A stretch of 64,000 nt of DNA from Phycisphaerales bacterium (lineage in GTDB: Bacteria > Planctomycetota > Phycisphaerae > WQYP01). Shown in pieces: positions 16,655 through 33,904 of the stretch (position 1 is the stretch's first letter; each line of letters starts with the position of its first letter). The position numbers and the translations under genes are program-made. The DNA is taken from positions 98,924 to 162,923 of the forward strand of contig DAIDJN010000056.1 of the NCBI GenBank assembly GCA_027451365.1, given 5' to 3'. The notes below the pieces were generated by a model, which saw only the letters and a program-made list of their open reading frames with translations, made no database searches and was not told the DNA's origin.

Positions 16655-16738
16655 CCGATTTTCATTGTGGCACAGGTACCCTTTTGGCCCGGCTGTGTTC
16701 GCCGGTGATTGACAGGAACTATTTTTCTGAGGTTTTTA

Positions 16739-18535
16739 ATGTTGAATCTGAAATGTGTCCTCCGGACGGTGTCTGGTCTCTTCCTGGCTGGTCTGCTGGC
16801 GGCGCCGGTTGCCGCGGCGCCGGTCAAGGTGCAACTGGTAAAATCGGGCAATGGCTTTGAACTGTTGCGCGGCGGTAAGCCCTATTTTGTGAAGGGTGCC
16901 GGCGGCGGCTTTTCTTTGGCCGCACTTCACGCCGCTGGTGGCAATTCCGGACGCACCTGGGGTGCAGATGGCATTCAGAACCAGCTTGATACGGCCGCGA
17001 AACTCCACATGACCATGCTGGTCGGCTTCTGGCTGGGACATCCGGGAGATGGTTTTAACTATCACAATGCCGTTGCAGTGCGGGCGCAATATGAACAATG
17101 CAAAAAATATGTGCTGGAATACCGCAACGATCCCGCCGTGCTGGCCTGGGGCATTGGCAACGAAATGGAAAATGGTTATGACCATAAAATTCTTTGGAAG
17201 GCTGTGGAACAAATTGCCAAAATGTGTCATCGCCTGGATCCCAACCATCCCACAGTGACGGTGGTGGCGGAAATTGGCGGCCACAAAGTTCAGAAAATAA
17301 ATAAATATTGCCCCGATATTGATATAATCGGAATTAACAGTTATGGCGGGGGGGCTTCGCTTTACCAGCGCTATCTGAAGGCTGGTGGTGTCAAGCCGTA
17401 TCTGATTACCGAATTCGGACCTCCGGGAACGTGGGAAATCGGTCGTGATAATATTGGTCTGCCGGTGGAGGAAACCAGCTCGCAAAAAGCGCTTGCGTAC
17501 GCGGCGACCTATCAGCACAGCGTGCTGAACACCCACGGGATGTGTTTAGGTTCTTATGCATTTACATGGGGCTGGAAGGTGGAAGCAACGCCCACCTGGT
17601 ACGGGTTGATTCTGCCCGATGGCCGACGGCTGGGCGGGGTGGATTACCTCCAGCATTTCTGGACCGGCCACTGGCCTGCCCACCTGTGTCCGGTCATAAA
17701 ATCCATCACAATGGATGGCGGCGACAAACTGGCACCCGGCAGTGTGCTGCACGCCCGCGTGGTGGCTGTCCAGCCCGGAGGCGGCGCACTAAGTTATCAT
17801 TGGATATTGCGACGCGATATTTCCAATCTGAATATTGCCGGCGGCCTTGGGGGGGCCATGCCGACGGCATATAAAAAAGCCATCGCGCAAAACGGAGCGG
17901 ATCATGTCTCCGTTAAGATGCCGCAAAACGGGGGCTATTATCGATTGTTTTGTTATGTATATAACACACACAATGGCGCAGCGGTGGGTAACCTGCCCCT
18001 TCAGGACACCGCCAAACAGCGTCCCATGCGCTCTCCGGTCGCGAAAATCCCCCTGGTTCTGTTGGGCAATGGGGCCAATTCACCCTTCGTCCCGGCCGGC
18101 TGGATGGGCGATTATTCCGCCATCGGATATGACGGCAATTGCCCGACAGATCCGCATTCGGGAAAATCCTGCGTGAAGATTTCATTCAAACAATCCAACG
18201 GCTGGGGCGGCATCGCCTGGCAGGATCCCGCCAACGACTGGGGTAAAACCTATGGCGGCTTGAATTTGAAGAAGGCTAAAGCACTAAGCTTCTGGGCGCG
18301 GGGGAAAGTCGGCGGTGAATCGGTGACATTCGGCGTGGGATTAATCGGCTCTGACCAGCCATACCATGATACCGTCCATGTGTCCCGCAAAGTCACACTT
18401 GGCACGCACTGGAAGAAGTATACTATTGATCTGAAAGGTAAAAACTTGTCCCGCGTCATCACCGGCTTTTACTGGACCGGTGGGGCCAATGGTGCCCCAT
18501 TTGCTTTTTATCTTTCGAATATCAAGTATCAGTAA
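16739..18535 (+). CDS. secreted clan GH-A (GH5/GH2-like TIM barrel) glycoside hydrolase with a C-terminal about 150 aa beta-sandwich (CBM-like) domain
   Basis: The track start at 16709 is TTG; ATG at 16739 has a GAGG RBS. Signal peptide; LAWGIGNEMEN (acid/base Glu context) and YLITEFGPPG (nucleophile Glu context) are typical of clan GH-A. The C-terminal 150 aa are homologous to the downstream stand-alone ORF. Confidence 0.7.
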   Translation: MLNLKCVLRTVSGLFLAGLLAAPVAAAPVKVQLVKSGNGFELLRGGKPYFVKGAGGGFSLAALHAAGGNSGRTWGADGIQNQLDTAAKLHMTMLVGFWLGHPGDGFNYHNAVAVRAQYEQCKKYVLEYRNDPAVLAWGIGNEMENGYDHKILWKAVEQIAKMCHRLDPNHPTVTVVAEIGGHKVQKINKYCPDIDIIGINSYGGGASLYQRYLKAGGVKPYLITEFGPPGTWEIGRDNIGLPVEETSSQKALAYAATYQHSVLNTHGMCLGSYAFTWGWKVEATPTWYGLILPDGRRLGGVDYLQHFWTGHWPAHLCPVIKSITMDGGDKLAPGSVLHARVVAVQPGGGALSYHWILRRDISNLNIAGGLGGAMPTAYKKAIAQNGADHVSVKMPQNGGYYRLFCYVYNTHNGAAVGNLPLQDTAKQRPMRSPVAKIPLVLLGNGANSPFVPAGWMGDYSAIGYDGNCPTDPHSGKSCVKISFKQSNGWGGIAWQDPANDWGKTYGGLNLKKAKALSFWARGKVGGESVTFGVGLIGSDQPYHDTVHVSRKVTLGTHWKKYTIDLKGKNLSRVITGFYWTGGANGAPFAFYLSNIKYQ

Positions 18536-18605
18536 GGCCGCGGATTATGCCGCATCGGTACGTCGAATGTCCGGATCGTGAACTGGCTTGTATAAGGACG
18601 CAATC

Positions 18606-19238
18606 ATGTTGAGAACTATTTCCAATCAAATTTGTGGCGGTCTTTGGCTGCTGATTCTGCTGGTGGCAATCGTTTGTGCGATGGGCAACCATCGGGTTGC
18701 CATCGCGGCCGATGCCACGCCGTCAGGTGCTGCCAAAGCCGCATTGCCACTGGTGATTTACAGCGACGGCAACGGGAATTCGGGCTACATACCCAGCGGC
18801 TGGATGGGCGATACCGGTAACATTCATTACAAGGGGCATTGCACCACCGCCAACCCACCCAAGGGAACCAACTGTATCCGCATTAAATATGCCTCCGGCA
18901 CCGGCTGGGGCGGCATTGTATGGCAAAATCCGGCCAACAACTGGGGCGATGCCCAGGGCGGCTTCGACCTGACCGGTGCCAAAACGCTTTCCTTCTGGGC
19001 AAAAGCCAAACATGCGGGCCTGAAGGTGACTTTCGGTTTTGGTGTTATCGGTGCCGGGAAAACCTACAGCGACTCTTCGAAGGGGTCCAGAAAAATCACC
19101 CTGACAACAAAATGGAAAAAATACACTATCCGGCTTAAGGGAAAAGATCTGACCCGCATCGTTACCGGATTTTTCTTTTCAGCCGGTGCCCCAGGCAAGC
19201 CCTTTACGTTTTATCTGGACAATATTGAATACAAATAA
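18606..19238 (+). CDS. stand-alone secreted paralog of the GH C-terminal domain (putative carbohydrate-binding module protein)
   Basis: ATG at 18606 with an AAGGA RBS (the track start at 18588 is TTG). Signal/TM, then a domain alignable residue-by-residue with 16739..18535 residues about 440-598 (GWMGD, GWGGI.WQ.PAN.WG, LSFWA.(G/A)K, VTFG.G.IG, KKYTI.LKGK.L.R..TGF, FTFYL.NI.Y). Confidence 0.6.
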   Translation: MLRTISNQICGGLWLLILLVAIVCAMGNHRVAIAADATPSGAAKAALPLVIYSDGNGNSGYIPSGWMGDTGNIHYKGHCTTANPPKGTNCIRIKYASGTGWGGIVWQNPANNWGDAQGGFDLTGAKTLSFWAKAKHAGLKVTFGFGVIGAGKTYSDSSKGSRKITLTTKWKKYTIRLKGKDLTRIVTGFFFSAGAPGKPFTFYLDNIEYK

Positions 19239-20965: not shown

Positions 20966-21220
20966 GGCGGATTGCCAGCTTCCTTCAGGTGCTATCCGAC
21001 CACTCGCCAAAGACCCCCTGAGCGTTGTATGGAATGTCGGCGCGGTCATTGTCGCGGCAAAGCAATCGGCTTTTGGGAAAGCTTGCCCGCCGGAATTCCT
21101 TCCATTTAATCAATTTGTGCGCTATGTTTTTCATTTCCGATCAAAACCGGCGCACCCTTGAATCTTGTGAATTTATTATGCGGTTGACGCCTGATAACGG
21201 GCGCGTTACACCTTTTGTTT

Positions 21221-22441
21221 ATGGAAAATATACATGAAAAGCTGGCGGTCTGGCGAACCGGGCGGCATCTGCCCGGTCGCTGGAGCGGGATTGGCATTGC
21301 GGTCGTTTTGGTTCTTTTAATCGGTTGTCCGCGGCGCGGCGGAGCGGCTGTTCCCCAGAAAATCGCTGTGATACCAGCCGCAAAGACTGTGGCCAATATA
21401 TCCGCCAGACGGGCCGAGTGGTGGAAAATCTGGCACGAAAAGATGATGATCGATTATGAATTGCAGCGGCGCTTGGGGCCGGGGCAGCGGGCGCTGTTGT
21501 CCGCGGCATCCAGGCGGCGGGTGGCCGCCAAGGTCATTCCCATGACCTGGCGAGCTTACAAACTGAATCTTCAATTACTTAAGATCAGTTCTTCCCAACA
21601 GCGTCCGTTTGTACACGTTCTTCTACGGGAAGACCTGCTGATATTGAGCGTGCTTGGTGATGCAAAGGCCAAGGCGATATTGAACATAAATGCCGCATCG
21701 GCCAATCCTGCCAAAGCACAGGACGGGCGCGTGGTGCTTCTAATTTATCAATTGTATCTGGCCTGGCATCATGAAAAGAAGGTCTTCGCGATTTTGCGGG
21801 AATTTGAAAAGCTCGCCCTTGCACATCCAACAAGCGTTGATATCAGCACTACTCTTTCTTCCATTACCAACAGCCCGCCGCGATTGCCCACGCAGGCTGA
21901 AAGGCGATTTGTGCGGCACGTGCTTTTGAATGTGATGCCGAAAACTCTCGCGGCCCGCATGCTGGCGCAAGACAATGCCTCGCGGCAAAAGCTGCTGGCC
22001 ATGGTGGGTAAGCCTTTGAATCTGCAAACCCGATCGTTGACGGGTGACCGGTTGAATACCGCCCGCTGGCGCGGCAGAGTGCTGGTCGTATGCGTCTGGT
22101 TTCGCCTGAACCAGCTTGTCGCGATGCAGCCTTTTTACGATAAATTTCATGCCCGCGGATTGTCCATGGTCGGCATTCCAATGTGGCAGAATTTTGAACA
22201 GATCGGGCAGACCATGATGACCCATCCGCATATAACCTGGCTTCAGACGCGCATTATCCATAAGGTCGCAGGTGACGGACTGCTATTCGGTGCGATTCCA
22301 TTTGTGAATGTCGGTAATCGTTGGCAGGACTATGAAATAATTTGCGACAGGCGAGGCATCGTACGATTTGTGGTTTTCCACGGCAGCGGCGGTATGCCTG
22401 CGGAGGACATAAAGAAACTGCTGGCGGACAGGCCGCATTGA
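21221..22441 (+). CDS. membrane-anchored protein with a C-terminal TlpA-like thioredoxin fold lacking the CXXC motif
   Basis: N-terminal TM IGIAVVLVLLIGC; the C-terminal 120 aa have redoxin topology (GRVLVVCVWF-RLNQ...IPFVNVGNRWQD...) but WCxxC is replaced by VWFRLNQ. The track start at 21215 is TTG; ATG at 21221. Confidence 0.5.
   Translation: MENIHEKLAVWRTGRHLPGRWSGIGIAVVLVLLIGCPRRGGAAVPQKIAVIPAAKTVANISARRAEWWKIWHEKMMIDYELQRRLGPGQRALLSAASRRRVAAKVIPMTWRAYKLNLQLLKISSSQQRPFVHVLLREDLLILSVLGDAKAKAILNINAASANPAKAQDGRVVLLIYQLYLAWHHEKKVFAILREFEKLALAHPTSVDISTTLSSITNSPPRLPTQAERRFVRHVLLNVMPKTLAARMLAQDNASRQKLLAMVGKPLNLQTRSLTGDRLNTARWRGRVLVVCVWFRLNQLVAMQPFYDKFHARGLSMVGIPMWQNFEQIGQTMMTHPHITWLQTRIIHKVAGDGLLFGAIPFVNVGNRWQDYEIICDRRGIVRFVVFHGSGGMPAEDIKKLLADRPH
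22040..22441 (+). repeat. direct repeat copy 1 (3' end of the TlpA-like gene)
   Basis: About 400 bp with roughly 85-90% nucleotide identity (by eye) to 33500..33904, same orientation, 11.4 kb apart. Confidence 0.8.
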
Positions 22442-23887: not shown

Positions 23888-24550
23888 TTATTTGCGCACA
23901 ATAAACTTGCCGTACATGCCGGCCTTGGCGTGGGCGGGCATTTGACACAGGTAATAATACGTGCCGGCCTTCTTGCAGGTGAATGTAACGGTGGAAACCC
24001 AATAGCTGGATTGTTTTATATTGCTTCCAGTGCGCGGCATCATCAGCGGAATGCTGGTCAGTTGCCCGGGCAGCGGAAGCGTCATGACGCCGCCGTAAGG
24101 TGGGGCCTTTGTACCAATGGCGATTCCGTGAATCATGCCCGGGCCGTAGTCCATATTCACCAGAGTAAGTCGGATCACCGAGCCTGCCGGCACGCTTATC
24201 GTTGGGTCCACCAGCTTGTGGACTTCATACGTGGTATCCGGAAAGCCTGGTTCCACGGCCACAAAAACCAGGTGTATTTTCCGGCCCGTGAACGTGACCA
24301 ATTTTGCGGACTTATTCGCCGTTCCGGTGGTATCGTCATGCTTCACCAGCGGAGCGACCTTGGCCCAAGGTAACAAAACCTGTCCTTCGGTCGGCTTGAC
24401 CTTCATATGCATGCCCGGCATGTTGCCCATTCCGGGCATGTTTCCCATGCCGCCCCGCACCTGCGATGGCGCGGCGAATTGAATGCCGACAGCGAACAAC
24501 AGGGCGGCGAGGCCAGCGGATAAGATTGCGGGTTGAGAAATGCGCTTCAT
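23888..24550 (-). CDS. cupredoxin-like type-1 (blue) copper protein with N-terminal Met-rich motif
   Basis: Start refined to ATG at 24550 (GGAG RBS); signal peptide; MGNMPGMGNMPGMHMK Met-rich repeat; C-terminal copper ligands CQMPAHAKAGMYGKF (Cys-x3-His-x4-Met) with an upstream His. Confidence 0.8.
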   Translation of the reverse strand: MKRISQPAILSAGLAALLFAVGIQFAAPSQVRGGMGNMPGMGNMPGMHMKVKPTEGQVLLPWAKVAPLVKHDDTTGTANKSAKLVTFTGRKIHLVFVAVEPGFPDTTYEVHKLVDPTISVPAGSVIRLTLVNMDYGPGMIHGIAIGTKAPPYGGVMTLPLPGQLTSIPLMMPRTGSNIKQSSYWVSTVTFTCKKAGTYYYLCQMPAHAKAGMYGKFIVRK

Positions 24551-24614
24551 GACATGACTCCAGTACGGGTTCTTACGACAAACCACCACAATGTTGCAGA
24601 AAAATCCCATGCAT

Positions 24615-26075
24615 TTAATACTCCGGTTTCGCGGCCGGGCTTGACGGGCCGGGAATGGGAACCGGCGTCTGGCCGGGATTGATACCGTCGCGCTGCATGT
24701 TGGCGGCGGTGGCGTTTAATGCCAGTTCACCGGGTGGATTCTGATACCAGCCGGGATCATTGTAGGTTGTAATGCCATCCCGAACTTTAAGAATCGTGAA
24801 CATGCCGCCCATATCAATCAGGCCGTGCGGGCCTTTTCCACCCAGCATGGGCGTGCTGTTGGGTATGCTGGGCATACCCATGGTCATGCCCATGCCATTC
24901 TGCCCCATGGTCATGTAATCGGGCAGAAGCTTTCGCATTTTATGGCCCAGGGTTCCCGGTTTTACACCAATCATGTTGGGGAAGTTATGGCCCATCTGCG
25001 TCATGGCATGGTGTGTCATGTGGCAGTGCATGGCCCAGTCCCCCGGATTACTGGCCACAAATTCCACCGTTCGCGTGGTACCTACCGGTACCAGAACGGT
25101 GGTGGCCGGCTGCCAGGCGCTGCGCGGATATTCGCCGCCATCACTGGCCACAATTTGAAACGAATAGTTATGAAGATGAATTGGGTGATGATCCATGGGG
25201 CCAAGATTTCCCAGGCGGATGCGTACCCGCTGGCCAGTGCGAACCACCAGCGGATGCGTCGCCGGAAAGGATTTTGCGTTCATGGTAAATACGTTAAAAT
25301 CCGTCATTTCCAGCGGGTTCGGCCGGTAAGCGCCCGGGTCAATCCGCCATTCATGAAGCATGATTGCGAAATCCCGGTCTACCGCACGGTCCGGGGCCGG
25401 CGTGCGCGGATGAATAATAAACAGCCCCGTCATGCCCAGGCCGATCTGCGTCATTTCATCAAAATGGGAATGAAACATTTTGGTGCCATGGTCCACCAGA
25501 TTAAATTCATACATATATGTTTCACCCGGCGGAATGGCCTTTTGTGTCAGCCCGGCCATGCCGTCCATGCCGCAGGGCACATACACGCCGTGCCAGTGTG
25601 TGGTGGTGGCCTCCGGAAGCCGATTGGTGACATAGATTCGCACCCGTTCACCCTGCACCGCTTCAAGTACCGGATGAATCATGCCATTGTATCCCCAGCA
25701 TAAAGCCTTAAGCCCGGGGCAGAATTCATTCCACACTTCCATGGCCACCAGATGAAACACTTTCACACCATTTACAATTTTCCATGGAATGGTGCCGGAA
25801 TTGGGGGATTCCACTGGTATATAATCCCGGCCCGGCAGGCCGGGCGCAAGAGGCCTGGCGTAGAGAGCTTTACGCAAATCTGCTGTGTCCGGCAGGCCGG
25901 TGGAATGATCCGGCGAGTCGGCGTGTGCCGCTTCAACTGCCGCGCCAGCGGTCTGGCCACCGGTGCCCGAACCCAGCATGGCTGCGGCGGCACCAGCCGC
26001 CACTCCGGATGCCAGCAGATTGCGACGGGATAATCCAGAACGTATGGAAGTTGTGTGGGACATATCTTGTGGCAT
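24615..26075 (-). CDS. multicopper oxidase (CopA/PcoA-like), Tat-exported
   Basis: Tat signal SRRNLLASGVAAGAAAAM; copper-centre motifs HWHGVYV, HPIHLHNYSF, HCHMTHHAMTQMGH; Met-rich segments MGMTMGMPSIPNSTPMLG; AAGGAAA RBS. Confidence 0.9.
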   Translation of the reverse strand: MPQDMSHTTSIRSGLSRRNLLASGVAAGAAAAMLGSGTGGQTAGAAVEAAHADSPDHSTGLPDTADLRKALYARPLAPGLPGRDYIPVESPNSGTIPWKIVNGVKVFHLVAMEVWNEFCPGLKALCWGYNGMIHPVLEAVQGERVRIYVTNRLPEATTTHWHGVYVPCGMDGMAGLTQKAIPPGETYMYEFNLVDHGTKMFHSHFDEMTQIGLGMTGLFIIHPRTPAPDRAVDRDFAIMLHEWRIDPGAYRPNPLEMTDFNVFTMNAKSFPATHPLVVRTGQRVRIRLGNLGPMDHHPIHLHNYSFQIVASDGGEYPRSAWQPATTVLVPVGTTRTVEFVASNPGDWAMHCHMTHHAMTQMGHNFPNMIGVKPGTLGHKMRKLLPDYMTMGQNGMGMTMGMPSIPNSTPMLGGKGPHGLIDMGGMFTILKVRDGITTYNDPGWYQNPPGELALNATAANMQRDGINPGQTPVPIPGPSSPAAKPEY

Positions 26076-26086
26076 ATACGGTTTCC

Positions 26087-27583
26087 TTATTCACGAGATT
26101 TGGTTGTCTTGGTTCCGATCGGTTTGTGTGTCTGGGGCAATTTAAGGATTTGCGCGGCTGCCGGAAGCCGCCCGCCAATGGCGCTTTCCAATGCTGCTCT
26201 GGCCATCCAATACTGGCCGGCCGCCTGCACGGCCTTGTGCTCTGCCCGAATTTCATTTTGCCGGGCCAGCAGCAATGGATATGGCCCGGCGTACATGCCG
26301 TTGTAGGACAGTTGGGTTTCTTGCAATATTCTCTGGCGCAGCGGCACCAGAATATTGCGGAAAAAAATGGCGGTATGACGGGCCGCGACCAATTTCACCC
26401 AACGGCGGCGCACGGTTGCCCGCACGTTGACAGCTATTGCGTCAATTTTTCTGCAATCAGCCAGAAATCTGGCCCGCGCGCGGGCAATGGCCGGCTGGCC
26501 CTGATTAAATATGGGCAGCGGAATGGAAATGGCCGGCCCTAGGGTGCCTGCCACATCGGGATCGCGCACATAATTTAAGCCTACTGTTGCGCCAGACATG
26601 ACGCCGGCGGCACCCGCCATTTTCAGCGTGCTCGCCGCCGCAAGCAGTCGGAAACGGGCTGCGCGAATCGCCAGACTTTGCCGAATAGCCAATGATTCCA
26701 GTCCGGCCAACTTCGGATCAACCATGGGCACCGGTGGCAGTTGCGGCTTTATCCGCCAGGAGTCCCGCGGTCCCCACAGGCCCATCAGTGCCGTTAGCGT
26801 CTGGCGATCTTCCAGCATTCTGGCGCCGGCATTGGCGTATGCGAGCCGGGCCTCCTGGTATACATCCAGCTTCTGGTCGTAGGGAAGTTGTGCAATATTC
26901 CCGGCCTCCCGCAGATGGCGGGCAAATATCGCGCTGTCGTGCGCAGCGGCCCTGACCTGCTTATCCAATTGCCACAGTTGCTCGTCCATCTGTACCTGAT
27001 AAAAGGCGGCTTTTACTTTGGCCGCCAGTTGCATGACATCCGCGGCCACGTCAGCTTTTTGTGCGGCAAATGCCGCTTTGGCAATGCGCTTCCGCGCGCT
27101 TAGGAACAGCAGGTCAAGAAATGTCTGGTCTACACTTGCGTCCCACCCGTGGTAAGGTCGCGCCGGAAACCGAAGGTCGAAAGAAAACACCGGATTTTTC
27201 AACAGGCCTGCCTGTACCAGATTTGCTTCGGAAACGCCCAGCTTCTGGTAATCCGCCTGCAATGCCGGACTGTTGAGCAGGGCGATTTGCACCGCCGCCC
27301 CCGCCGAGAGGTTGTGGGACAACAGCCCGGTGACCGCGGCACGAATCTTCTTATCCGCCCGGGCACTGTCATTCCAGATAACCTGCCGACCCGTGCGATG
27401 GCGTATCGCGCTGGCCAGTGAATGAAATCCCGGTCGCGGTGGCACCGTTGCGCAGCCCGCCAGCAGCAGCCCGCTGATAGCCATGGCTGCCTGCGTGATG
27501 CGCCGCCCGTGCCGGCGAGGCCATTGCCTGGCGGCTTTGCATATCGTGGTCAGTAAAAATGACGAATTGGATTGTGTTATCAC
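26087..27583 (-). CDS. outer membrane efflux protein (TolC/CusC-like OMF lipoprotein)
   Basis: GTG start overlapping the upstream stop (GTGA). Lipobox MAISGLLLAGC; two-repeat OEP architecture with long coiled-coil-like segments. Confidence 0.7.
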   Translation of the reverse strand: MITQSNSSFLLTTICKAARQWPRRHGRRITQAAMAISGLLLAGCATVPPRPGFHSLASAIRHRTGRQVIWNDSARADKKIRAAVTGLLSHNLSAGAAVQIALLNSPALQADYQKLGVSEANLVQAGLLKNPVFSFDLRFPARPYHGWDASVDQTFLDLLFLSARKRIAKAAFAAQKADVAADVMQLAAKVKAAFYQVQMDEQLWQLDKQVRAAAHDSAIFARHLREAGNIAQLPYDQKLDVYQEARLAYANAGARMLEDRQTLTALMGLWGPRDSWRIKPQLPPVPMVDPKLAGLESLAIRQSLAIRAARFRLLAAASTLKMAGAAGVMSGATVGLNYVRDPDVAGTLGPAISIPLPIFNQGQPAIARARARFLADCRKIDAIAVNVRATVRRRWVKLVAARHTAIFFRNILVPLRQRILQETQLSYNGMYAGPYPLLLARQNEIRAEHKAVQAAGQYWMARAALESAIGGRLPAAAQILKLPQTHKPIGTKTTKSRE

Positions 27584-27939
27584 TGAGGGCCTCCCTTCAT
27601 GTTCATGCCCGGCATGGAACCGATATTCATTTGGGGCGTGGATGTGATGTTTCCGGGCTGTCCGGCTTTTGTCGGTACGCCAGAAGTCTTGCCGGCCGCG
27701 GACGGAGGTTTTTGTAAAATAGCCACCGGTGGCTCAGCAATTTGCTTATTGGGATGTGCCACATTCAGGAAACCCGTCGCCGGAATTGCCGGACCGGGCG
27801 TGGCCTGCGGATCAGCCGGACCTGCCAAAGCCGCTCTTTCCGTATTGCTTAAGTGGTTGTCGCCTCCCGATTGACTACAGCCTGTCACCGGCAGACATGC
27901 GGCGCACAAAAGTGCTGGAATAATATACCGTGATTGCAT
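27580..27939 (-). CDS. small Met-rich periplasmic lipoprotein (putative Cu(I)-binding)
   Basis: ATG at 27939 with a GAGG RBS (the track start at 28008 is TTG); lipobox LLCAACLPVTGC; C-terminal MNIGSMPGMNMKG Met-rich motif; its stop overlaps the OMF start. Confidence 0.55.
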   Translation of the reverse strand: MQSRYIIPALLCAACLPVTGCSQSGGDNHLSNTERAALAGPADPQATPGPAIPATGFLNVAHPNKQIAEPPVAILQKPPSAAGKTSGVPTKAGQPGNITSTPQMNIGSMPGMNMKGGPQ

Positions 27940-28445
27940 ACAGCCTCGCGGAAAAACTGCGGAAAAAAATGCGTTACAGTCGCCGGCGCGAACCGGCGGA
28001 AAAAACAAAGTGTGCGCCCCGAATGTATCAGATAATCAGTGCGCAGTGCTGCGACAACAGCGATTGCCGCTGGCGAGCGGTCAATGGAAGCGCGGGAGTC
28101 GCCCCACGCGCTTGTGAAATGGCAGAAATGTTTTTCAAGCGGTCATGGGTCAGCCACGTCAAAAGACTCGGCGCGGTCGGAGGGGCAATTTCAATTTTGC
28201 GGATGGACAGTGTGCGCGCAACCAGTTGATGGCAATCACAGTCTGGAACGCCGCTGCGCCATGCCGGGATTGACCCGACAGTTGAATTGCCAGCGATTAT
28301 TTCATGGTTGGAACGGGCGACCGAAGCGTGGCAGCGGCAGCGATTGAACCCAAGTCCAAACGACAGGCACAATGCCGTGATCAGAATGTATTTAAGCGCA
28401 GCGCACATGAAGAAAGTGTAGAAACGGCGCTGTGGATTGTCAAAT

Positions 28446-33499: not shown

Positions 33500-33904
33500 G
33501 GTCAGCGCAAGCGCGACGGCCACCACCCGCGGGCGGCCAGGGTGGTGGTTGTGTGGGTCTGGTTTTGCCTGAACCAGCTTGTTGCGATGCAGCCTTTTTA
33601 CAGCCAATTTCACACACGCGGTTTGGCCATGATCGGCGTTCCCATGTGGCAGAATTTTGAACAGATCGGGCAGGCCATGATGACCCGCCCGCATATAACC
33701 TGGCTTCAGACGCACATTATTCACAAGGTACCAGGTAATCGACTGTTGTTCGGTGCGATTCCATTTGTGAATGTCGGTAATCGTTGGCAGGACTATGAAA
33801 TAATTTGCGACAGGAAGCGCGTGGTGAGGGATGTGGTTATTCATGGCAGCGCCGGCATGCCGAAGGTGGAAATAACAAACCTGCTGGCGAATAAACGGCA
33901 TTGA
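33500..33904 (+). pseudogene. truncated copy (C-terminal about 120 codons only) of the TlpA-like gene 21221..22441; direct repeat copy 2
   Basis: 33542..33904 translates to a near-identical MVVVWVWFCLNQLVAMQPFY...IPFVNVGNRWQDYEIICDR... but lacks the N-terminal 280 codons, the TM segment and any plausible RBS. Confidence 0.7.

Follow-up and report, generated by a model that had tools for sequence, protein, structure and literature searches.

How could a TolC-like outer-membrane channel take part in copper resistance when no pump is encoded beside it? The question is raised by a group of genes on the minus strand of a 64,000-nucleotide stretch of a Phycisphaerales bacterium genome (assembly GCA_027451365.1, contig DAIDJN010000056.1, positions 98,924 to 162,923; the window in what follows), where a small Met-rich lipoprotein, a TolC-like outer-membrane factor (OMF), a multicopper oxidase (MCO) exported by the twin-arginine translocation (Tat) system and a cupredoxin are encoded one after another. 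The original prediction, made from the sequence alone, took these genes for a distinct periplasmic Cu(I) shuttle and oxidation module, and left open whether the OMF has a partner at another place in the genome or can do without one. Comparative data support a distinct copper capture-and-oxidation module around the OMF, but its layout is not new, since examples from Sinorhizobium meliloti and Myxococcus xanthus have been published. The operon belongs to a widespread and already partly characterised, though poorly understood, operon type and is not a new system. We favour, with moderate confidence, its interpretation as a periplasmic and outer-membrane copper-detoxification operon of the type 'small lipoprotein - OMF - two-domain MCO - copper-binding protein'.

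Conservation of the linkage and relation to RND pumps

We followed the linkage of these genes through 80 metagenome loci for which the MCO served as seed and through two loci looked up directly, which together held 85 genes of the MCO family. Eighteen of the 85 lay too near a contig end to be assessed. A co-directional OMF gene stood beside 63 of the 67 assessable genes, directly upstream in 57 cases and directly downstream in six, and the four MCO genes without a neighbouring OMF look like artefacts of open reading frame (ORF) calling. A jackhmmer search that started from the window lipoprotein reached 50 ORFs outside the source contigs, and 47 of them, in 46 loci, lay directly 5' of an OMF gene. 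By tblastn, the MCO was found on 380 plasmid records, including those of Burkholderia pseudomallei, B. cenocepacia, Ralstonia solanacearum, rhizobia and the Roseobacter group, and all five annotated plasmid neighbourhoods that we inspected had a 'TolC family protein' directly upstream of a 'copper oxidase'. Plasmids of B. pseudomallei and B. multivorans show the order hypothetical protein - TolC - oxidase - CusF - CopC - CopD together with a heavy-metal two-component system; on a Phaeobacter plasmid two small genes are followed by TolC, the oxidase and a cupredoxin::CusF fusion; and on a Simkania plasmid the TolC - oxidase pair lies beside mer genes and Tn3. P1B ATPases adjoin the MCO or the cupredoxin in some loci. 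Members of the Planctomycetota, Myxococcota, Pseudomonadota and Chlamydiota, at least, carry the operon type, and the OMF-MCO-lipoprotein linkage is near-obligate across phyla.

These neighbourhoods bear directly on the explanation that the OMF is an ordinary duct for a CusBA- or Czc-type pump of the resistance-nodulation-division (RND) class, or for an ATP-binding cassette (ABC) system with a membrane-fusion protein (MFP), which is encoded elsewhere in the genome, the MCO being a neighbour for the sake of copper co-regulation. OMFs are commonly encoded apart from their pumps, as tolC is in Escherichia coli, and the OMF considered here has a fully canonical fold and homologues that were automatically named czcC or heavy-metal OMF by JGI. 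RND genes are also present in the sampled flanks, about 10 kb, of 8 of the 74 OMF-MCO loci. Against a shared duct stand a linkage that is near-obligate and often translationally coupled, and small plasmids such as that of Simkania, which has the pair and no pump within the 6 kb inspected on either side. The three RND operons that are wholly visible each have their own OEP gene, and one of them (locus L150) also has a CusB-type MFP. These RND-linked OEPs are far from the MCO-linked OMFs, which score 117-377 bits against the window OMF; the OEP of L147 scores 25 bits, and those of L150 and L117 fall below the search threshold. Because RND genes occur in only those 8 loci, and because the three complete RND operons bring their own OEP, we regard the OMF-MCO pair as probably independent of RND pumps and a pump encoded elsewhere as unlikely, though by no means negligible.

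Locus L150 (3663-12963) is of interest in its own right. A single strand there carries OEP - CusB-type MFP - RND - MCO - His-rich small protein - second OMF, and therefore a complete Cus-like pump and an MCO-linked OMF coexist side by side.

The outer-membrane factor

The GTG start of the OMF gene overlaps the stop of the lipoprotein gene as GTGA, as had been noticed in the original prediction, and the same 4-nt overlap is found in 6 of 8 homologue loci of Planctomycetota and in many others. We prefer this start because the 465-residue version proposed by gene callers would have a signal peptide that lacks a charged n-region. In the longer protein a charged n-region precedes the lipobox LLAGC (residues 40-44, at 27452-27466), and Cys44 is nearly invariant in 30 homologues.

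The family assignment is clear from several directions. The Pfam OEP family matches the protein in two repeats (2e-25, 90 bits). A single-sequence search of the PDB gave no match, and a profile of 30 sequences matched OprJ, OprM, CusC, SilC, MtrE and CmeC, with OprJ, OprM, CusC and SilC at 1e-8 to 1e-6. The AlphaFold2 (AF2) model (pLDDT 85, pTM 0.78) has the canonical four beta-strands and long paired helices, and with this model Foldseek retrieved TolC, TOprJ1 (TM 0.76), CusC, OprM and SilC at probability 1.0 and TM 0.6-0.76. The TolC/OprJ/CusC fold expected of this gene is thus borne out, and so is the claim that neither RND pump nor MFP accompanies it. A Pfam scan of 24 of the larger ORFs of the window turned up no domain of an RND pump, an MFP or a P-type ATPase; in these and in the operon there was no HlyD/MFP, ACR_tran or ABC partner for the OMF, and so neither the MFP nor the inner-membrane transporter of a tripartite pump.

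The multicopper oxidase

The MCO gene starts 11 nt past the end of the OMF gene, and its product was correctly taken for a Tat-exported enzyme with a full set of copper ligands. It has the twin-arginine motif SRRNLL (26013-26030) and the copper motifs HWHG (25587-25598), HSH (25464-25472), HPIHLH (25170-25187) and HCHMTHHAMTQM (24993-25028), and these four motifs are invariant in 40 homologues. Its architecture differs from that of the Pco/Cop oxidases. Pfam recognises only Cu-oxidase_3 and Cu-oxidase_2, residues 107-359 are matched in a single stretch by the two-domain laccase 2zwn of the PDB, and the confident core of the AF2 model consists of two beta-sandwich domains for which the top Foldseek matches are the two-domain MCOs 2zwn, 3gdc, 7rab, 9cck and 3g5w.

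Two-domain enzymes of type B form trimers in which the trinuclear copper cluster is located at the subunit interfaces. They are defined by two cupredoxin domains of which only the C-terminal one holds the ligands of the type-1 (T1) copper, and they have been described as homotrimers whose T1 sites face a central tunnel and whose physiological role is poorly understood (PMC13151041). In the window MCO the T1 ligands Cys351, His356 and Met361 all lie in domain 2, and Cys168 of domain 1 is not conserved. By analogy with the characterised enzymes we expect a type-B two-domain oxidase that forms a trimer. Two other identities were considered and rejected: that of a three-domain CopA/PcoA oxidase (TIGR01480 copper_res_A, 140 bits against a cut-off of 479; only two domains by Pfam, AF2 and Foldseek) and that of CueO (NF008205, 86.5 bits against a cut-off of 525).

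The family is large, its members at E <= 1e-10 numbering more than 7,600, and well conserved, identity being about 60% even to Myxococcus (54-60% to the Myxococcus paralogues and 54% to the M. xanthus-type CuoB that adjoins CorE). Conservation extends to a Met-rich C-terminal extension of about 115 residues (24840-24920 and beyond), strongly conserved across phyla, which contains YMTMGQxGM...MGM...NSxPM...GGMFTxLKVR...DPGWY. The homologues P0011, P0049, P0052, P0076, P0087, P0094 and P0116 have an HMBD domain (PF19335) fused to their C-terminus.

The lipoprotein

The lipoprotein gene probably begins at ATG 27939, since a GAGG precedes this codon and homologues start there. The N-terminus of the resulting protein, MQSRYIIPALLCAACLPVTGC, has a proper lipobox (VTGC, 27877-27888), which is followed by a conserved N-proximal Pro/Ala motif (27760-27822) and, towards the C-terminus, by the Met-rich tail MNIGSMPGMNMKG (27592-27630); the last residues are MNIGSMPGMNMKGGPQ. 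The protein has no Pfam match, and thus no CusF-type chaperone domain (PF11604) was detected in it.

Across the family the N-terminal motif, about 10 residues after the lipid-bearing Cys, reads roughly xPPLxx[DNH]PA[NS]PxAPxxxxPxxxxL, and the C-terminal module varies. It may be Met-rich, an HMBD (PF19335, 5e-15 and 4e-17), a CusF_Ec domain (PF11604, 9e-14, found at the lipoprotein position in locus L124) or missing altogether. The HMBD is thus borne by the MCO in some loci and by the upstream lipoprotein in others, and this ties the copper module to the oxidase in the manner of a Rosetta stone. The lipoproteins encoded upstream of the OMF in S. meliloti (L163:3221-3448) and Phaeobacter (L161:4221-4445) have no metal-binding tail, and the B. 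pseudomallei counterpart (L160:4123-4422) has a plain signal peptide and just a short SMGGMKHGG motif. On this evidence it is the N-terminal Pro/Ala motif, and not the copper module, that the family has conserved. This motif more likely serves the OMF, in docking, assembly or gating; that a small lipoprotein can bind to an OMF is already seen in the YbjP-TolC structures 9tg4 and 9v52.

The variable modules also allow for a different division of labour, in which the lipoprotein and the OMF serve the MCO itself, by metallation, assembly or anchoring at the outer membrane, and do not export copper. Small upstream genes needed for the maturation of an MCO are described, CutF of Rhodobacter being reported as necessary for the maturation of CutO (PMC8456105). 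The HMBD modules on the lipoprotein or fused to the MCO would suit such a role, as would the trimeric state expected of both OMF and MCO and a conserved MCO extension that is unstructured in the monomer model. Yet a channel-forming OMF of 50 kDa would be expensive as a mere anchor, no metal site is present in the lipoprotein of S. meliloti, and an MCO that leaves the cytoplasm through Tat is presumably folded, and probably metallated, beforehand. We consider this explanation improbable.

The cupredoxin

The last gene starts at 24550, at the ATG used by its homologues. Near the N-terminus of its product lies the Met/Gly-rich segment GGMGNMPGMGNMPGMHMK (24401-24454), and the type-1 copper site that had been predicted is present as H141 (24125-24136) and C202-x4-H207-x4-M212 (23915-23947). 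In 25 homologues H141, C202 and M212 are invariant and H207 nearly so. A profile of the family aligns over its whole length with rusticyanin 1CUR (E 2.6e-28, chain residues 15-155), and the protein scores 97.6 bits against the rusticyanin equivalog model TIGR03095, below the cut-off of 146.7. Judged by these alignments it is a genuine rusticyanin homologue that falls short of the equivalog. It is not a CopI, because NF051440 gives 17.2 bits against a cut-off of 280 and only the C-terminal loop aligns.

The cupredoxin family is far narrower than the MCO family and is found 3' of the MCO only in Planctomycetota, where every locus has it there (12 loci, some of them partial). In other phyla it often adjoins P1B copper ATPases, and these other contexts rule out the idea that the cupredoxin is always part of the triad. 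A Phaeobacter inhibens plasmid has a comparable combination, in which a plastocyanin/azurin-type cupredoxin and CusF are joined in one protein (L161:7319-8017), parallel to the Met-rich segment plus cupredoxin of the window. Among the metagenome-assembled genomes that bear the rusticyanin-like cupredoxin, many go by isolate names in the style of sample codes (DBS, SKS, YS, WY, ZJ and others), and further carriers are Acidihalobacter, Halothiobacillus and Acidiferrobacteraceae. As a reading of names only, this suggests metal-rich or mine-type habitats.

The relationship to rusticyanin raises the possibility that the operon acts on something other than copper, the MCO oxidising Fe(II), Mn(II) or phenolics, the cupredoxin carrying electrons as rusticyanin does, and the OMF serving as a channel for substrate or product. 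Rusticyanin, the closest characterised relative of the cupredoxin, is known from iron oxidation, some MCO homologues are labelled 'manganese oxidase' by JGI, laccase activity in vitro is described for one two-domain MCO of type B (PMC13151041), and the genome names just mentioned resemble mine-site sample codes. The operon nevertheless has neither cytochrome genes nor cyc2, cyc1 or cox-like genes of an iron-oxidation context, the neighbours of the cupredoxin being the MCO and the OMF, and the Met-rich, CusF and HMBD modules are binders of Cu(I) or Ag(I). Met residues make up 4/13, 6/18 and 7/27 of the three Met-rich segments (lipoprotein, cupredoxin and MCO) against a window background of 2.3% (P = 2e-4, 2e-6 and 2e-6), and all three segments are conserved among orthologues, so the Cu(I)-type motifs singled out in the original prediction stand. 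Copper induction of related operons is documented in two organisms, and CopCD, P1B ATPases and heavy-metal regulators are found as neighbours. We regard the system as specific for copper because CusF_Ec or HMBD occurs at the lipoprotein position, HMBD on MCOs, CusF downstream, CopC-CopD with a two-component system, and P1B ATPases nearby, and a non-copper substrate seems to us very improbable.

The first gene of the operon

All four minus-strand ORFs of the original prediction are present, co-directional and tightly packed, with the ends given there. The strand had not been mentioned, and a fifth, conserved gene upstream of the lipoprotein gene had been overlooked. The ORF of this gene has 145 codons, and its probable start is M20, at 28408. 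The product is small and Cys/His-rich, has a single membrane helix at its N-terminus, bears conserved Cys motifs (FCPC-like and CxC) and ends in LL[RH]QHCAL[IV][IV]. Its gene lies directly 5' of the lipoprotein gene in all eight Planctomycetota loci and in the metagenome loci L134, L099 and L086, and the family always provides the first gene of the Planctomycetota operons examined. No Pfam or NCBIfam model matches the protein, even at E = 1, and a single-sequence search among 1.8 billion representative proteins returned three matches only. A relationship to DUF2946 or to proteins of the HYC_CC_PP type was considered and gained no support. Small signal-anchored Cys-cluster proteins hold the equivalent position in S. 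meliloti, Burkholderia and Phaeobacter; the likeness is one of position, and homology is not established. A possible role for this membrane protein is that it may sense or bind copper.

Comparison with known copper systems

The closest layout is that of the pSymA locus of S. meliloti, where a Cys-cluster protein, a 75-residue lipoprotein, TolC, the oxidase, a plastocyanin/azurin protein and a copper-binding protein are encoded in this order. It shares with the window the gene order, including the Cys-cluster protein and a small lipoprotein gene that overlaps the OMF start, and an oxidase of about 450 residues. The two MCOs are 47% identical over their full length, Met-rich C-extension included (E 2e-139), and the OMFs 28% over 446 residues (E 8e-34). 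The S. meliloti lipoprotein, in contrast, has no Met-rich tail; its cupredoxin is of the plastocyanin/azurin type and is accompanied by a separate small copper-binding protein, whereas that of the window is of the rusticyanin type with a Met-rich segment of its own; and the locus lies on a megaplasmid, while the window is an apparently chromosomal Planctomycetota contig in which the operon sits among housekeeping genes. In S. meliloti CCNWSX0020 an 'MCO operon' that encodes Omp, CueO, a blue copper protein similar to azurin and a chaperone for copper is highly induced by copper, and has been proposed to oxidise Cu(I) and then export Cu(II) through the outer membrane (reviewed in PMC6266702).

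The Myxococcus locus that we examined reproduces the published order MXAN_3424 (OMF) - cuoB - corE - HMA protein. In M. xanthus, cuoB is rapidly induced by copper from a CorE-dependent promoter upstream of the OMF gene MXAN_3424 (PMC3107203; PMC3707914). Like the window, it has an OMF gene directly 5' of the gene for an MCO of this family, and a nearby triad of HMBD lipoprotein - OMF - MCO means that there, too, a small lipoprotein with a copper module precedes a second OMF. The differences are the adjacent extracytoplasmic function sigma factor CorE, the lack of a downstream cupredoxin, and a lipoprotein module that is HMBD and not Met-rich.

Among the classical systems, Pco/Cop (PcoABCD/CopABCD) likewise comprises a Tat-exported periplasmic MCO whose sequence has Met-rich segments, a protein of the outer membrane, and small copper binders in the periplasm, but its MCO has three domains where that of the window has two, its outer-membrane protein is the PcoB/CopB beta-barrel and not a TolC-fold OMF, and the window operon has neither CopC nor CopD. 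Export of Cu(II) by PcoB/CopB is itself only presumed (PMC7558416). CusCFBA shares a lipidated OMF of the heavy-metal class and a small protein resembling a Cu(I) chaperone, at whose position other loci of the present type have true CusF domains; it differs in that the window has an oxidase and, in the operon and the ORFs scanned, no CusA (RND) or CusB (MFP). CopI of Rubrivivax gelatinosus resembles the window cupredoxin as a periplasmic cupredoxin with disordered Met- or His/Met-rich segments for copper capture in a copper-resistance context (PMC7558416; PMC13308877), although the latter lies outside the CopI family and belongs to a rusticyanin-like fold subfamily. An extensive review on copper homeostasis in bacteria, dated 2020 (PMC7558416), makes no mention of the OMF-MCO operon type, abundant as it is. 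A copper phenotype of a Bradyrhizobium tolC mutant looks like a general TolC defect with sensitivity to several metals, and we have not used it as evidence.

Proposed function

We propose that Cu(I) entering the periplasm would first bind to Met-rich tails, those of the lipoprotein and of the cupredoxin, and then pass to the MCO, expected to be a Tat-exported type-B trimer with a conserved Met-rich extension of its own. The MCO would oxidise Cu(I) to Cu(II) with O2, and the cupredoxin might act as a copper buffer or an electron relay, as has been proposed for CopI. The OMF and its cognate lipoprotein would then let copper out through the outer membrane, a task that in Pco/Cop falls to PcoB/CopB. 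We see the OMF as a probable stand-in for CopB because in Burkholderia the OMF-MCO core is followed by CusF-CopC-CopD.

Several points weigh against this proposal. An OMF is not known to have an energy source of its own, and canonical OMFs open only when they are engaged by a membrane-fusion protein, none of which is visible in the operon or the window ORFs scanned. Copper-induced expression and a part in copper tolerance are known from S. meliloti and M. xanthus only, and the role of the window operon is a proposed one. We infer from gene order and annotation that the published CCNWSX0020 operon is the pSymA locus of another strain, and the cupredoxins of S. meliloti and the window align at the T1 loop only (E 5e-5) and are not orthologous. 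The S. meliloti lipoprotein lacks a metal site, and therefore the core role of the lipoprotein family is, on its sequences, probably not copper binding. The C-terminal extension of the MCO is modelled at low confidence and is unstructured in the monomer model.

The trimeric state expected of both partners invites a more specific idea, which we offer as speculation and regard as quite unlikely, namely that an MCO trimer with its T1 sites facing the central tunnel might dock coaxially on the OMF trimer, positioned or fed by the lipoprotein. Cu(I) would be captured and oxidised inside the tunnel, and copper could then leave the cell without a pump, with O2 as the driving force and Cu(II) released into the OMF duct, and RND pump, adaptor and proton-motive force would all be dispensable.

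Layout and surroundings of the operon

The features of the operon are collected in Table 1. The promoter-like candidate matches at 10/12 positions, and the scan as a whole found 5 such sites against 3.7 expected, which is not above chance; a scan for terminators around the operon was likewise not above chance. No regulator gene is visible in the operon.

Table 1. Genes of the copper operon and the promoter-like candidate, in the direction of transcription (positions in the window).
Feature	Position	Strand	Length	Remark
Promoter-like candidate TTGACA-17-TACACT	28415-28443	minus		just 5' of first gene
Cys/His-rich small membrane protein	28028-28408; ORF reaches 28465	minus		first gene
Lipoprotein	ORF 27580-28008 from TTG; likely gene 27580-27939	minus	119 aa	
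Outer-membrane factor (OMF)	26087-27583	minus	498 aa	
Multicopper oxidase (MCO)	24615-26075	minus	486 aa	Tat-exported, two-domain
Rusticyanin-type cupredoxin	23888-24550; ORF reaches 24610	minus	220 aa	secreted

The operon is flanked by unrelated genes, a GH43-like gene upstream and, on the opposite strand, a DUF1559-type N_methyl gene downstream, and in 20 further larger ORFs of the window Pfam recognised housekeeping and glycoside-hydrolase genes. As to signs of a mobile element, no tRNA gene lies around the operon, and the sole pair of direct repeats is one of 300 nt (22075-22374 and 33538-33837, 86% identity, 11.46 kb spacing), which brackets the segment with the copper operon. The copies are the 3' part of a 408-residue ORF (21215-22441) and part of a 120-residue ORF (33542-33904) with near-identical C-terminal domains, and the pair may have come about when part of a gene was duplicated, or may be a scar of recombination. 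Elsewhere in the window two adjacent plus-strand genes (16709-18535 and 18588-19238), beside a GH16/malectin gene, encode secreted proteins of 608 and 216 residues with a common C-terminal domain of about 160 residues (...GWMGD...GWGGI[AV]WQ[DN]PAN[DN]WG...FYL[SD]NI[KE]Y), which is probably a carbohydrate-binding module.

Significance

For the window, the analysis lets the functions of five genes of an uncultured member of the Planctomycetota be annotated with confidence. What is particular to this version of the operon is the two-domain, trimer-type MCO, the rusticyanin-type cupredoxin with a Met-rich segment of its own, the Met-rich form of the lipoprotein, the orphan Cys-rich first gene and the Planctomycetota host. 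For the operon type as a whole, the comparison shows that the oxidase is of the two-domain trimer type and not of the CueO/PcoA type, that the lipoproteins form a modular, OMF-coupled family with a common N-terminal motif and interchangeable copper modules (Met-rich, HMBD, CusF or none), and that the MCO-linked OMF differs from those that belong to nearby RND operons. It also raises the question, which can be tested in tractable organisms, of how, with no pump, a TolC-like channel might contribute to copper resistance. A coaxial complex of MCO and OMF, if true, would provide a physiological role for the type-B (superfamily N) two-domain MCOs.

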